The notes under the pieces were generated by a model that was not told the origin of the DNA, searched no databases, and saw nothing but the letters and a program-made list of their open reading frames with translations. Shown piece after piece: positions 1,865-6,021 of a DNA stretch of 6,021 bases. The translations under genes and the position numbers were made by a program. Numbering within the stretch: position 1 is the first letter of the stretch; every line of letters starts with the position of its first letter. This DNA comes from a virus, in IMG/VR virus record IMGVR_UViG_3300031922_000088, positions 1-6,021 of that record; one strand, 5' to 3'.

Positions 1865-3076
1865 ATGGATCGTTTTTATCATCATGTGCTGTGCGGCTTG
1901 GCTGTTGTTTTCGGACTGACAGTATCCGATTTGTTGAAAGCCACGAATATTCATCATCCGGATATTGGGCTTGCCCGGGCTGCATGCCATGCCGATCTAG
2001 CAGCTGCATCTGGCCGTTCACAACTCGATTGGAAAACTAACCCAACTCGCCAAGTTACATATGTCAGTTCGGCGGGACCACCGCCTTTTGATTGTGCTAC
2101 TCGCCGTTTTCATACACCCATCAATCTACACGGCTACACTTGCGGTGTTGTATGGACCAACACAGAAACAGGTTCTACAACAAATACTCGGTCTTGCATT
2201 AATGCAAACGCCGTTCTCAATAACAGCACTGAAATACATTTAGGTTCTCTCTCCTGCGTAACACGGCAACAAGAACAGTTTTCATGGCAAAATGGCAATC
2301 CCAATAATGTCAACATCTGTTTAGGAGGCTGTGAATATCAAGTCTCTGTTGATATGTGTGGTAGGAATTCAGACACCGAGCTATGGCAATGTACTGGTAC
2401 CGGTACACCTACAGGCCCAACTTGTTTAACGTTAGGTCAAAATCTACAGAATCCAACACCATTGCCTCCTTCTGACCCAACACAACCACCTGTTGACCCA
2501 ACACCACCTCCTGGCGATCCAACACCACCACCACCCGGATCAGGCGGAGGCGGCACCGCACCACCTGATGACGGTATCGATGACGGAGTTCAAGTTGTCC
2601 AAGGTCTTGGACCGCATTTGACAGCTATTGAACAAGCTGTATTAGGTCTAGGTCCTCGCATAGGTGCAGTGCAATCCGGCCTGACAGCCGCTATCAATCA
2701 TGGCACCAACGAGGCTAGGCCAAACGCAGGTCGCATAATCGTCGAGCTTGAAGCAATTCGTAACGCTATCGAGCATCCTAGCCAAGGAGGCCTTCTTCCT
2801 GGCGATGATGGCGGCGCATTGCCAACACGCGATGACATTATCGAGCGTGGCACCGCTGAGGAAATGATCAGCCGATTAGATACAGACGGCTTTGGCATGA
2901 CGAGAGGGTGTCCGGCAATGTCATGGCGTCAGACTTTCGATCTTGGTTGGGCTACTTTTCACATGGCCCAAGTGTCCACTATTATTTGTTGGGCGATAGG
3001 TTTGTTTGGGTGGATGATTGCACTTGCTGGATTCATCCAAGCATCTTACATCCTATCGAGGATCGGAGTACGGTAA
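1865..3076 (+). CDS. Adsorption / minor coat protein, g3p-like
   Basis: Start chosen at ATG 1865 (MDRFYHHVLCGLAVVFGLTVS, signal-like). The 403-aa product has a Cys-rich N-terminal region (10 Cys after the leader) and a Pro/Thr-rich then Gly-rich linker (DPTQPPVDPTPPPGDPTPPPPGSGGGG). It also has a C-terminal domain ending in a hydrophobic anchor (IICWAIGLFGWMIALAGFIQASYIL). This is the architecture and gene position of Ff g3p. Confidence 0.8.
   Translation: MDRFYHHVLCGLAVVFGLTVSDLLKATNIHHPDIGLARAACHADLAAASGRSQLDWKTNPTRQVTYVSSAGPPPFDCATRRFHTPINLHGYTCGVVWTNTETGSTTNTRSCINANAVLNNSTEIHLGSLSCVTRQQEQFSWQNGNPNNVNICLGGCEYQVSVDMCGRNSDTELWQCTGTGTPTGPTCLTLGQNLQNPTPLPPSDPTQPPVDPTPPPGDPTPPPPGSGGGGTAPPDDGIDDGVQVVQGLGPHLTAIEQAVLGLGPRIGAVQSGLTAAINHGTNEARPNAGRIIVELEAIRNAIEHPSQGGLLPGDDGGALPTRDDIIERGTAEEMISRLDTDGFGMTRGCPAMSWRQTFDLGWATFHMAQVSTIICWAIGLFGWMIALAGFIQASYILSRIGVR
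2474..2539 (+). repeat. Three imperfect tandem ~21-nt repeats encoding the DPTxPPx linker of the g3p-like protein
   Basis: gacccaacacaaccacctgtt / gacccaacaccacctcctggc / gatccaacaccaccaccacccgga, head to tail. Confidence 0.8.
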
Positions 3077-3372
3077 TGGGCGCATTACTTGCAGCATTTG
3101 TACCTTTCTTCATGGCTGCACTACGCTTATTCGTTCTTGCCAACATCGTCGGATTTGTAGTCCGTATTTTTGTCGGCCTCGGTGTTTATTTCTTGGTTAT
3201 GGAACCGCTTGGCGACGTTATATCTGACATGCTTAGCAATCGATTTCTCGGCCTTCCACCTGAAGTTGCTGGCTGGGTTGGTTTTATGAATGTCGATGTT
3301 TACGTTCAAGCAATCCTGAGTGCCTATGCAGTTGTTTGGGCATCGAATTTCGTTCTTCGGATGCGTCCATAA
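3076..3372 (+). CDS. Minor coat protein, g6p-like (hydrophobic; possibly DUF2523 family)
   Basis: ATG 3076 overlaps the g3 stop (TAATG), with GGAG 7 nt upstream. The 98-aa product is very hydrophobic, with 2-3 predicted helices. It lies between the g3-like and g1-like genes, as in other inoviruses. Confidence 0.7.
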   Translation: MGALLAAFVPFFMAALRLFVLANIVGFVVRIFVGLGVYFLVMEPLGDVISDMLSNRFLGLPPEVAGWVGFMNVDVYVQAILSAYAVVWASNFVLRMRP

Positions 3373-4559
3373 TGCCGATCAAGCTAGTTACCGGCACACC
3401 AGGAGCCGGCAAGACCCTTACTGCCCTGCAGGACGCATTGACGCAAGTTGGTGTTGATTTTGGCCTCTCCGATCCACTGGCAGAATGGGACCGTGGCACC
3501 ATACCCACACGCCCCGTTTATTTCTGCAACATTCGTGGCCTCGATCCTCGGCTACCCACGATTGAAACGCCATGGGATTGGGAGTCCTGTCCTGACGGAT
3601 CGCTGATCGTTGTTGACGAGGCGTGGGAGTTTTTCGGCAAGCAGTTGCGGAACGCGGACGATCCCCGCGTGCTCAACCTGGCCAAGCACCGCCATCGCGG
3701 CTTCGATTTCATCTGGACGAGCCAAGCGCCCTCGCAGTTGATTTCTGCGGTTCGTGACCTGGTAGGCTCGCATGTTCACGTAACAAGGAAGTTTGGCACC
3801 GAGACCACCATCCGCTATGAATGGCCGCATGTGCAGGAGTCACCCAACGGGCAGACTGCGAAGGCGCAGGCGATAGAACAGGTCTGGCGTTATCCGCCCA
3901 AACTGTTCCCGATCTACGAATCGGCGACCCTCCACACTGTCAAGCGCAAAATTCCCGCCAAGATCATCGCTGCCCTGGTACTGGCTGGATTTGTCCCTGT
4001 TCTCCTTGCTGTGTCCGGCTGGGCGCTCTACCAGGGCTTCGGCACGGCTGGCGTCGATCTGCCCTCACTCACTACCGAGACTGCCATCGCAGCTCAACCG
4101 GAAGGCGCGGCGCGCAGCGTAGCGAGCACCGCGCCGAGGGCCGGCACCAACAACGACGCACCGCAGACGGTCGAGGAGTTCATCATTGAACGAACTCCGC
4201 GCATCGATTGGGACCCTGCATCAGCACCCATCTATGATCGCTTCGAGGTCCAGGACTACCCGCGCATGTTCTGCATGATCTCGGGTGATCAGCGTATCGA
4301 GCGTGTGAGTTGTCGATGCCGAACTCAACAGATGACACCTATCCACGTGGACGACACCATCTGCATGCATATTGCTCTGAACGGCCGATGGGACCCGCGA
4401 CTTCCACCGATCGGGCACACGCCGAGGGAGGCCGACCGGACCCAGCTCCCGCCGATCGGCGAACAGTCGGCTATGCCATCAGCACCCATCGGCTTGGGTG
4501 GCTTTGACCGCTCGATCAGGCTTCCGCACGTTACGCCGGACGAAACCTCCCTTCGTTGA
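3372..4559 (+). CDS. Assembly NTPase, Zot / g1p-like
   Basis: ATG 3372 overlaps the previous stop (TAATG). Walker A GTPGAGKT lies at residues 8-15 and Walker B LIVVDEAW follows. A central TM helix (IIAALVLAGFVPVLLAVSGWAL) precedes a ~170-aa Cys-containing C-terminal domain. This is the typical Zot family (PF05707) layout. Confidence 0.9.
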   Translation: MPIKLVTGTPGAGKTLTALQDALTQVGVDFGLSDPLAEWDRGTIPTRPVYFCNIRGLDPRLPTIETPWDWESCPDGSLIVVDEAWEFFGKQLRNADDPRVLNLAKHRHRGFDFIWTSQAPSQLISAVRDLVGSHVHVTRKFGTETTIRYEWPHVQESPNGQTAKAQAIEQVWRYPPKLFPIYESATLHTVKRKIPAKIIAALVLAGFVPVLLAVSGWALYQGFGTAGVDLPSLTTETAIAAQPEGAARSVASTAPRAGTNNDAPQTVEEFIIERTPRIDWDPASAPIYDRFEVQDYPRMFCMISGDQRIERVSCRCRTQQMTPIHVDDTICMHIALNGRWDPRLPPIGHTPREADRTQLPPIGEQSAMPSAPIGLGGFDRSIRLPHVTPDETSLR

Positions 4560-4591
4560 TCCTGAATGGTCATTAACTCAAATTCTATACC

Positions 4592-4656
4592 CTATTGACA
4601 CGTAGCAACGGCGCGGCTCTCCGGGATTGTCAATAGTTTTTGCAACATTTGACAAT
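4592..4656. repeat. Three TTGACA-containing repeats forming two mutually exclusive inverted repeats in the AT-rich intergenic island
   Basis: A is ctattgaca (4592-4600), B is attgtcaatag (4626-4636) and C is ttgacaat (4649-4656). A pairs with B over 9 bp with a 27-nt loop, followed by ttttt at 4637-4641. B pairs with C over 8 bp with a 15-nt spacer. A CAATTG palindrome lies at 4653-4658. Confidence 0.6.
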
Positions 4657-4860
4657 TGATTGTTTTGATCGACCTCCGCCGTTATTTTTTTGGCGTGCCA
4701 CGGCCCAGCATCGCAGCCAAGGTCAGCACGCCACCGCGGGCCACATTGCGCCCCGCCAAACCGAGCAACAGGACACCCCAGCCCATCCCCGCACGGCCGC
4801 GCCCGGACCGCGCCAGCGGCCCGACGGGGCCCCCACGTAGTGGGGCAGGGAGGGCGACGC

Positions 4861-5127
4861 CTATGGCGTCGTCCAGCGGTTGTAGCGGGCCCGGAACGGC
4901 AGGATATTAGCTTCCTGCTTCCGCTTGCCCAGCTCGTCGAGCTGCATCACCGCCAGGACACGTTGCAGGCGAATCCTCCGCCGATCGGGTGCCACGAGTT
5001 CATCGCCGGCGATCCGCCAGCCGGCCCAATCGCCGAACAGCGGACCATTGCCGTAGACCAGCCAGTCATGCTGCCTACGCAGGCAGTCCGTGATGCCAAG
5101 TTTCTCGAAGCAGGGCGGTCTTTCCAT
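4861..5127 (-). CDS. Small protein, DUF3653-like; candidate XafT-type Xer recombination activation factor
   Basis: This 88-aa ORF has strong third-position GC bias typical of real genes in this genome. The segment GDWAGWRIAGDELVAPDRRRI matches my recollection of the DUF3653 core (W.GWR..G..L..P.G..I). It starts 85 nt from the dif-like attP. Only a weak RBS (GGA) is present, and its start overlaps the upstream ORF by 53 nt. Confidence 0.5.
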   Translation of the reverse strand: MERPPCFEKLGITDCLRRQHDWLVYGNGPLFGDWAGWRIAGDELVAPDRRRIRLQRVLAVMQLDELGKRKQEANILPFRARYNRWTTP

Positions 5128-5599
5128 CGGTCATTCCGTTTGAGGGGTTGCCCGGAATGCCGAAAGCCTCGTGCAAGAGCTGTTGCAGTCGTTTCAGCAG
5201 CACCGCCACAGTTCGCATAATGTATAGTCCTTCCTTCGTTGCCTGGTAGCCGCTGTCATGCGCTACCGCAGGGGCTGGGAAGCTACTCGACACCAGCACT
5301 GCCACTGCCATCAGTGCCAGCGCCTGCACTTTTTTTGCGAGACGTTGGAACGTCCGTCGTGAGCTCGCATCCGCGTTCGTTGCCTCTGCCATTGACTCGA
5401 ACAGCAGCACCGCGATCTCTTGGTCAGTCTTGCCCAGGTCGCGGGCCATGCGTTCGATCACGGCCGCATGCGCGTCCTTCCCGTTTCGCCAGTGCCCGGG
5501 GTTGCCGTTGGAGAGGCCGAGCGCCATACAGGCCTTTCGGTCACTTGTCAAGCCTTTGACAACCTTCCATTTCTCGAAAAGTTCGGCGGTTACTGGCAT
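5075..5599 (-). CDS. HTH DNA-binding regulator, phage repressor-like, with a predicted transmembrane segment
   Basis: Start chosen at ATG 5599 (GAGGG 8 nt upstream), giving 174 aa. LTSDRKACMALGLSNGNPGHWRNG resembles a Cro/CI-type helix-turn-helix. It is divergent from the replication/structural operon. A hydrophobic stretch VQALALMAVAVLVSSSFPAPAVA (residues ~91-113) follows a basic patch. Confidence 0.6.
   Translation of the reverse strand: MPVTAELFEKWKVVKGLTSDRKACMALGLSNGNPGHWRNGKDAHAAVIERMARDLGKTDQEIAVLLFESMAEATNADASSRRTFQRLAKKVQALALMAVAVLVSSSFPAPAVAHDSGYQATKEGLYIMRTVAVLLKRLQQLLHEAFGIPGNPSNGMTDGKTALLRETWHHGLPA
5210..5237 (+). other. dif-like attP for XerC/XerD-mediated integration (XerC arm + central region conserved, XerD arm degenerate)
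   Basis: AGTTCGCATAA-TGTATA-GTCCTTCCTTC was compared with E. coli dif GGTGCGCATAA-TGTATA-TTATGTTAAAT. The XerC arm matches 9/11, the central region 6/6 and the XerD arm 2/11. The 15-mer TTCGCATAATGTATA (5212-5226) is the reverse complement of the TATACATTATGCGAA core that I recall being reported for Xanthomonas filamentous phage attP/dif. Confidence 0.75.
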
Positions 5600-5751: not shown

Positions 5752-5967
5752 ATGACCCGTACTCAGTGGATCCTCGACTACCGCCGCGCCCGGCTGGTCG
5801 CTCGCTTTGAAGATCGATTTGCCAGCGCTCTACCTAGCGCCTTGCTCTCGGTCGGCACCTACTCCTGCTCCCAAGCCGCCTACGCGGCGGCCCTTCGCTA
5901 CAAGTGGGACGCGCTGTCTCTGCCCTTGCTCAAGGGGTGTCCTCGCGTCTCTGGTGCCCGCTCATGA
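5752..5967 (+). CDS. Hypothetical 71-aa protein, first gene of the rightward operon
   Basis: GGAGAG at 5741-5746 lies 5 nt before ATG 5752. Third-position GC is high. The stop overlaps a possible rep ATG (ATGA). I recognise no motif. Confidence 0.5.
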   Translation: MTRTQWILDYRRARLVARFEDRFASALPSALLSVGTYSCSQAAYAAALRYKWDALSLPLLKGCPRVSGARS

Positions 5968-6021
5968 GGCCCGCACGGGACTTTTCCGCGCTCGAGCCGC
6001 AGGACAAGCGGCGCGGCCGCC
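5964..6021 (+). CDS. Possible true 5' end of the rep gene (continues through 1-114 into the 115..1083 ORF once the genome is circularised)
   Basis: ATG at 5964-5966 overlaps the TGA stop of the 71-aa ORF (ATGA), the same coupling motif as the rep/ssb junction at 1080-1083. The frame of the 115 ORF has no stop between position 1 and 115. Third-position GC is high, about 30 of 39 codons by hand count. Confidence 0.35.
   Translation, partial: MRPARDFSALEPQDKRRGR
5967..6021. repeat. Terminal direct repeat, copy 2 (circular-contig overlap)
   Basis: Exact 55/55 identity to 1-55. The window ends exactly at the end of the repeat. Confidence 0.95.

Follow-up and report, generated by a model that had tools for sequence, protein, structure and literature searches.

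The inoviruses CTXphi and VGJphi encode no integrase and integrate at dif through XerC and XerD, two recombinases of their hosts. The attP of CTXphi consists of two inverted dif-like sites folded from single-stranded DNA, and VGJphi-type sites, as reportedly defined by Das et al. in 2011 and 2013, have a usable XerD arm and central homology on the XerC side only. Holliday junctions in both systems are formed by XerC only and are resolved by replication (PMC6744903). In TLCphi, a satellite of Vibrio cholerae, a full and reversible crossover is started by XerD at an attP that binds XerD poorly, and XerD is activated by XafT, a fusion of an HTH domain with DUF3653 (PMC6744903). XafT broadens the range of usable XerD-arm sequences so that degenerate arms are tolerated, favors a T at position 1 and a G at position 5 of the XerD side during integration in V. 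cholerae, and is detected from replicative but not integrated TLCphi (PMC9226527). Once integrated, TLCphi lies between a crippled site on one side and, on the other, a regenerated dif (PMC6744903, PMC9226527). Genes for DUF3653 proteins, those of every Xanthomonadales dif phage among them, adjoin dif in 51 species, and the dif-integrating phages of this group have already been classed as TLCphi-like by Midonet et al. 2019 (PMC6744903).

Closest to the locus described here are the Xanthomonas inoviruses of the Coriovirus group, Cf1c, XacF1, phiLf and their relatives, which lack an integrase and integrate at dif. The attP of XacF1 is the 15-bp dif core TATACATTATGCGAA reported by Ahmad et al., which is common to Cf1c, Cf16-v1 and phiLf (PMC4076744), and the same 15-mer core is carried by phiLf, phiLf-UK (Lf-UK) and phiLf2 (Lf2) (bioRxiv 10.1101/2023.12.30.573655). 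Both attL and attR of XacF1 have been sequenced experimentally from fresh lysogens (PMC4076744). The XacF1 attP lies within ORF12, which is split by integration, and integration and excision reach an equilibrium (PMC5666396). In the XacF1 genome (NC_074762), we find the site ACTTCGCATAA TGTATA GAGGGTGGGTA at 6502-6529, inside minus-strand ORF12, which encodes an HTH/DUF3693 regulator. Directly downstream, ORF11 gives a weak match to DUF3653 (20.7 bits).

The DNA analyzed here, a stretch of 6,021 nt that we call the window, repeats its bases 1-55 at 5967-6021 and is therefore a circular inovirus genome, complete at 5,966 bp. A free 5,996-bp Logan contig from SRR1636513, the only match of a look-up with the ssDNA-binding protein, is the same phage. 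The window carries ten ORFs. Seven on the plus strand comprise Rep (115-1083), the ssDNA-binding protein (1080-1364), two small coat-type ORFs, a pIII-like ORF (1868-3076), a pVI-like ORF (3067-3372) and Zot/pI (3372-4559). The minus strand encodes an 88-aa protein assigned to DUF3653, the XafT/PSB15 family (4861-5127), and a 174-aa HTH regulator (5075-5599; phrog_638 transcriptional regulator, 3.9e-12), and a further ORF of 71 aa has no assignment. PHROGs and Pfam scans of all ten ORFs gave no recombinase or transposase match, in keeping with a prior sequence-only reading of this DNA that had found no integrase. Three tandem 21-nt repeats in the pIII-like gene (2465-2527) encode a proline-rich linker, PPSDPTQ/PPVDPTP/PPGDPTP. 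In the intergenic region that separates Zot from the DUF3653 ORF, an inverted repeat with perfect 8-bp arms, ATTGTCAA-N15-TTGACAAT (4621-4656), coincides with the sole promoter-like matches of a promoter scan, on both strands, and could be an operator or origin element.

Near and distant searches for the whole genome found no nucleotide match among 50,697 deposited phages. The Zot protein shares no more than 34% identity with its counterparts in inoviruses of Stenotrophomonas, Xanthomonas, Pseudomonas and Ralstonia, and only ∼30% with that of XacF1-type phages. Compared with the latter, the window genome is also smaller and lacks the TraX-like and DUF4124 ORFs.

The site of interest occupies 5210-5237 on the plus strand and reads AGTTCGCATAA TGTATA GTCCTTCCTTC. 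Scored against E. coli dif (GGTGCGCATAA TGTATA TTATGTTAAAT), the XerC-binding arm AGTTCGCATAA (5210-5220) agrees at 9 of 11 positions. The central strand-exchange hexamer TGTATA (5221-5226) is that of canonical dif at all six, and the segment in the XerD-arm position, GTCCTTCCTTC (5227-5237), agrees with TTATGTTAAAT at only 2 of 11 and thus contains no XerD-arm sequence. These scores and coordinates are the ones first given by the sequence-only reading. The XerC arm is identical to that of dif in at least 54 of 120 sampled genomes, and TGTATA is the central hexamer of dif in 118 of the 120.

Positions 5212-5226 are the exact reverse complement of TATACATTATGCGAA, the attP core of Cf1c, phiLf and XacF1. 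The resemblance to XacF1 extends to the surroundings of the core: in both phages, attP lies in a minus-strand HTH regulator ORF with the DUF3653 ORF directly downstream, the XerD side scores 2/11 (GAGGGTGGGTA in XacF1), and related peptides are encoded across the site (GLYIMRT in the window and PLYIMRS in XacF1). The proteins themselves are far more divergent. A BLASTP match between the window regulator and XacF1 ORF12 is not significant, and the window DUF3653 protein shares with ORF11 only a 30-residue motif, in which L.G.W.GWRIAG..L..P[DE] aligns with LTG.WAGF.F..TPE.

The 15-mer TTCGCATAATGTATA occurs once in the window. By chance, a genome should contain an exact match of this length 1e-5 times and one of 15/17 or better 9e-4 times; sequence shuffling predicts 0.09 occurrences per window when up to three mismatches are allowed. 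The sequence-only reading had noticed no second, inverted dif-like site, and our search of the window agrees, as the next best 28-mers reach 16/28, a chance level for which ∼3.5 are expected. In the predicted fold of plus-strand single-stranded DNA, the site is unpaired in the minimum free energy structure (z -1.26) and no stem surrounds it. With neither an inverted partner nor folding of the site, an attP of the CTXphi type is rejected. Elsewhere in the window, a XerC-arm-like 13-mer, CAGGTCGCATAAT, is present in the pIII-like gene at 2727-2739 in the same orientation as attP. This match is probably due to chance, because it is followed by CGTCGA and not by the dif central hexamer.

Related phages in IMG/VR and Logan (Zot 57-73%, Rep 72-81% and DUF3653 40-83% identical to the window proteins) carry [A/T/G][G/C]TTCGCATAA TG[T/A/G/C]ATA at the equivalent place, with TGAATA, TGGATA or TGCATA as their central hexamers. 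The TTCGCATAA segment is invariant in all relatives and in XacF1, and TTCGCATAATG-N-ATA is invariant in the relatives, while the flanks and the XerD side diverge. In an alignment of eight genomes that includes XacF1, the sole invariant block is 5212-5222 plus 5224-5226, and the flanks average ∼50% identity. The XerD sides of the window phage and ten relatives score 2-5/11 against TTATGTTAAAT and are unrelated to one another. A DUF3653 ORF adjoins the site wherever a relative carries it, with a start codon ∼65-85 nt from the XerC arm (83 nt in the window). One relative (L004; Zot 58% identical) is missing the site, the regulator and the DUF3653 ORF together, so the integration module seems to be exchangeable. 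At 3800-4900, this genome instead carries an 81-aa HTH ORF and a 253-aa ORF resembling a C5 DNA methyltransferase.

The location of the site within an ORF raises the alternative that the core match reflects coding constraint on the regulator, through the peptide LYIMR, or mere chance. The window, its relative L001 and XacF1 do all encode [LF][YF]IMR across the site. However, the eight genomes show no synonymous variation there, even though their regulators are barely alignable, and in L002, L003 and L005 the regulator crosses the site in another frame than in the window and L001. Conservation therefore acts on DNA and not on protein, and the expected frequency of an exact 15-mer given above leaves little to chance. 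We consider the probability of either explanation to be negligible, and both are rejected because prophage junctions fall exactly at the site.

These junctions come from three related prophages located at dif, two in Silanimonas MAGs (L008 and L096) and one in Logan assemblies (L010/L011). Each shows an attL, an attR or both. The attL sites consist of the XerC arm, the central hexamer and phage sequence, and the attR sites consist of the XerC arm, the central hexamer and a host side that in all cases starts with TTATGT; the central hexamers of attL and attR are identical to each other. The first prophage, on a 126-kb contig of Silanimonas MAG GCA_026005095.1 (L008; Rep 72% identical to the window protein), spans 5.9 kb between host HemN/ACPS genes and an AidB-like gene. 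It is bounded by attL at 9160-9187 (AGTTCGCATAATGAATA-GCTTGACCGGT) and attR at 15057-15084 (AGTTCGCATAATGAATA-TTATGTCTTGA), and its gene order is colinear with that of the window when the latter is circularly permuted at 5226/5227. The same attL is present in an assembly from another run (L009). The second prophage, in Logan assemblies of two samples (L010 and L011; Rep 73% identical), has an attL with 4 kb of host flank and the attR GGTTCGCATAATGAATA-TTATGTAGAAA (whole: GGTTCGCATAATGAATATTATGTAGAAA). The third (L096) emerged from a genome scan with the predicted dif; it has the attR GGTTCGCATAATGAATA-TTATGTCGGCG, and its phage side shares ∼75% nucleotide identity with window positions 4810-5226 (DUF3653 83%, Zot 71%) up to a point exactly after the central hexamer, where the homology stops. 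In these prophages, the N-terminal part of the regulator is found at attL and the portion past the site at attR. The N-terminal part in L008 (9265-9541) is matched as two overlapping pieces in different frames and is intact in the Logan copy L009; either a frameshift in this MAG or an error of sequencing may account for the split.

The sequence-only reading had anticipated phage copies integrated at dif with hybrid junctions inside 5212-5226. This holds for the relatives L008/L009, L010/L011 and L096, whose junctions map to the core and not elsewhere in the phage; for the exact window phage, look-ups in genome, metagenome, viral and Logan data returned no integrated copy. Among these look-ups, an exact one for Zot gave no match and a Rep protein scan of genome contigs yielded no relative. 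A search for flank synteny among L008, L010 and L096, and for an empty site to set beside them, produced only a weak ACPS gene match.

Several observations concern other dif-associated elements. A metagenome scan for TTCGCATAATGTATAGTCC recovered one unrelated element, on contig Ga0124846_1032641 (L137), whose site at 2131-2158, ATTCGCATAATGTATA-GTCCACGAAG, also lacks a XerD arm. This site is located at the 3′ end of an ORF for a DUF3693-like HTH regulator, whose reading direction is opposite to the site orientation; a ParA-like gene follows, and an IS3-type transposase is encoded upstream. The element may be an island or plasmid that exploits Xer and belongs to another class. Viral sequences scanned for GTTCGCATAATGTATAG-N6-C contained two unrelated contigs from IMG/VR, 18 and 45 kb long and without protein similarity to the window (L146, 1954-1981, and L147, 1357-1384), which carry GGTTCGCATAA TGTATA GGATATGCCCT, a dif half-site without a XerD arm. 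Neither scan recovered the window phage itself in integrated form or as a further copy. [quoted passage not shown] Finally, a truncated 68-aa DUF3653 ORF and an IS transposase are found beside the dif AGTTCGCATAATGGATATTATGTAGAAG in L141-L144 (for example, L143 957-1272), an arrangement that is present on 15 contigs and looks like a decayed IMEX remnant. The central hexamer of this dif, TGGATA, is unusual.

Multimers can arise from rolling-circle replicons, and a site of this kind might act only to resolve multimers of the replicative form, as the cer and psi sites of plasmids do, with no integration of the phage. One JGI contig (L139, 1-11381) indeed holds 1.9 head-to-tail copies of a related phage with a period of 5,932 bp and the attP form of the site in both copies; a tandem array, multimerization of the replicative form or an artefact of assembly could each explain this contig. 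The look-ups that found no integrated copy of the exact window phage are also compatible with multimer resolution, and count to that extent against an attP. Conversely, three related phages are integrated at dif through the same site, and the flanks of the window site are unconserved, whereas the resolution sites of plasmids retain the two arms together with accessory sequence of ∼200 bp (PMC6744903). We therefore regard a function confined to multimer resolution as very improbable.

Taken together, the sequence evidence indicates that the site is real, non-random and functional at the level of the phage family. Very probably, 5210-5237 serves as attP for an inovirus without an integrase, which inserts at the dif of its host by means of host XerC and XerD and is thus an IMEX of the Cf1c/phiLf/XacF1 kind. 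The sequence-only reading had proposed this use of the host recombinases, and its proposal gains support from three features: the core is a known attP, it is the sole invariant island of the locus, and the junctions of relatives fall within it. To judge from its arrangement, the window site is a new and very divergent case of the attP already described in Cf1c, XacF1 and phiLf, a TLCphi-like IMEX. Because the same arrangement is well described in Xanthomonas phages, it represents a new example and not a new kind.

The candidate attB, xGTTCGCATAATGTATATTATGT, is the canonical dif in at least 118 of the species scanned, among them Pseudomonas, Halomonas, Proteus, Erwinia, Steroidobacteraceae, Wenzhouxiangella, Lysobacterales (such as Coralloluteibacterium) and others. 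The predicted attB is therefore too widespread for dif alone to name the host. The relatives point to Silanimonas-like Lysobacterales, and the host of the window phage is likely to be a Lysobacterales bacterium. In contrast to the dif sites used by XacF1-type phages, those of the Silanimonas-like hosts of the relatives have non-canonical central hexamers: TGAATA or TGGATA is present at the prophage junctions, TGAATA being the hexamer of the host dif at L008 15057-15084, L096 4212-4239 and L011 6735-6762. The outer XerD arms of the host dif in this clade have also diverged (TTATGTCTTGA, TTATGTCGGCG). The phage hexamers TGTATA, TGAATA, TGGATA and TGCATA match the junction hexamers TGAATA and TGGATA, which suggests that identity of the central region is required and that position 3 of the phage hexamer tracks the host dif.

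On its double-stranded replicative form, the window phage carries a perfect XerC arm and the central hexamer of canonical gammaproteobacterial dif, adjoined by nothing resembling a XerD arm. XerC would bind the good arm, and XerD might be recruited by protein contacts and not by recognition of DNA. Identity of the central regions would allow a full and reversible crossover. If the window phage behaves as its relatives do, this crossover would take place inside the central hexamer or at its edges and create two junctions. In attL, phage sequence from 5227 would follow the XerC arm of the host and the central hexamer, and attR would comprise phage sequence to 5226 joined to the host XerD arm, so that a working dif would be regenerated. 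The expected junctions are positions 5190-5226 followed by TTATGT and, at the other end, a non-phage left flank and N-AGTTCGCATAATGTATA followed by 5227-5260. The absence of a XerD arm could protect the attL/attR pair from excision by FtsK-driven dimer resolution. Because attP lies inside the regulator ORF (5075-5599), integration would split the regulator at approximately residue 125. The prophage end nearest dif would then hold the DUF3653 ORF. Integration might also uncouple DUF3653 from upstream transcription, because attP separates its ORF from the 5′ part of the regulator, which is encoded on the same strand. A crude promoter scan found no sigma-70-type promoter for either ORF, including in the 83-nt gap between the XerC arm and the DUF3653 start codon.

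The sequence-only reading had also assigned the site to the TLCphi type and not to the folded single-stranded type of CTXphi. The anatomy agrees with this assignment: there is a single double-stranded site without a XerD arm, the hexamer is identical to that of dif, and a DUF3653 ORF adjoins it, a feature absent from that reading. TLCphi likewise has one double-stranded attP, in which a good XerC arm is paired with a XerD arm that is poor or absent, and a DUF3653-family gene adjoins it; the crippled site and regenerated dif that flank the TLCphi prophage are what we propose for the window phage. The likeness is one of sequence anatomy, from which XerD-first catalysis, at an arm that would be too degenerate for XerD to bind in the usual way, is inferred for the window phage. 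Other properties set the two apart. The window phage is an autonomous inovirus and not a satellite, its HTH and DUF3653 domains are encoded by separate overlapping ORFs with attP between them and not by a fusion, and its XerD side has neither the T at position 1 nor the G at position 5 favored by XafT.

The assignment of the 88-aa protein to DUF3653 derives largely from its homologues. Its own score against Pfam PF12375 (20.2 bits) is under the 22.4-bit cut-off; this family is matched by all nine aligned homologues (best E-value 3.5e-6), and a precomputed match exists for 6 of 15 database homologues. An AlphaFold model of the protein is mediocre (pLDDT 64), and a Foldseek search with this model against viral structures returned nothing informative. 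The protein may act like XafT of TLCphi and activate XerD (the D pathway), a possibility that we rate as somewhat less likely than not. Points against it are the match below the Pfam cut-off, the stand-alone form of a protein that in TLCphi is part of an HTH-DUF3653 fusion, and the absence of T1 and G5 from the XerD side. In addition, the DUF3653 protein of phiLf-UK, PSB15, is reported to bind the packaging-signal hairpin, to be needed for assembly and to be dispensable for integration, the efficiency of which did not change upon its loss (bioRxiv 10.1101/2024.03.19.585677, a 2024 preprint). Catalysis by the D pathway is contested for this reason.

The same attP could instead be used by the default pathway in which XerC acts first (the C pathway), as in CTXphi and VGJphi, with the DUF3653 protein serving as an assembly factor that binds the packaging signal and has no part in recombination. 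We give this possibility about the same weight as the D pathway, short of the probable. It is consistent with the findings on PSB15 and with the use of the C pathway by most IMEXs (PMC6744903), and the variable position 3 of the hexamer is on the XerC side, where exchange by XerC needs homology. It is also consistent with a stable, conserved hairpin, CTGGCCCGAGTAGTAACACGGGCCAG, at 58-85 of the window (DNA dG -14.2 kcal/mol, z -4.15), whose minus-strand arm, GGCCCGTG, fits the stem consensus of Xanthomonas inovirus packaging signals, GGX(A/-)CCG(C/T)G. Seven relatives (L006, L008, L011, L014, L015, L016 and L140) carry it ∼50 nt upstream of Rep, and L002, L003 and L005 have it in the opposite orientation. 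This hairpin is a candidate packaging signal and possibly a ligand of the DUF3653 protein. Against XerC acting first, however, the whole central hexamer is identical to that of dif, and not the XerC-side half alone, and DUF3653 genes are strongly linked to dif (PMC6744903). The equilibrium between integration and excision of XacF1 also fits a reversible full crossover (PMC5666396). VGJphi-type sites reportedly retain a recognizable XerD arm and share central homology on the XerC side only, whereas the window site scores 2/11 on its XerD side and 6/6 in the hexamer.

Integration at dif through host XerC and XerD, which we favor on either account of catalysis, leaves current understanding of these systems unchanged. 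A more specific proposal is that, among these Lysobacterales phages, the minimal, stand-alone 88-aa DUF3653 protein is a genuine XerD activator at an attP without XerD-arm determinants, that integration switches it off by separating it from its promoter, and that position 3 of the hexamer determines host range. We regard this combination as rather unlikely. If true, it would settle whether DUF3653 proteins outside Vibrio act as XafT or as PSB15, or would show that they have a dual role in packaging and recombination.

The finding adds an uncultured and very divergent lineage of inoviruses, whose relatives are prophages of Silanimonas-like Lysobacterales, to the elements that exploit Xer recombination. 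It shows the module formed by regulator, attP and DUF3653 in phages of plant pathogens to be much older and more widespread than protein similarity suggests. The clade also appears to offer a natural series of attP hexamers matched to variants of host dif, with XerD sides that seem fully unconstrained, and this series could help to test recombination at sites without a XerD arm.
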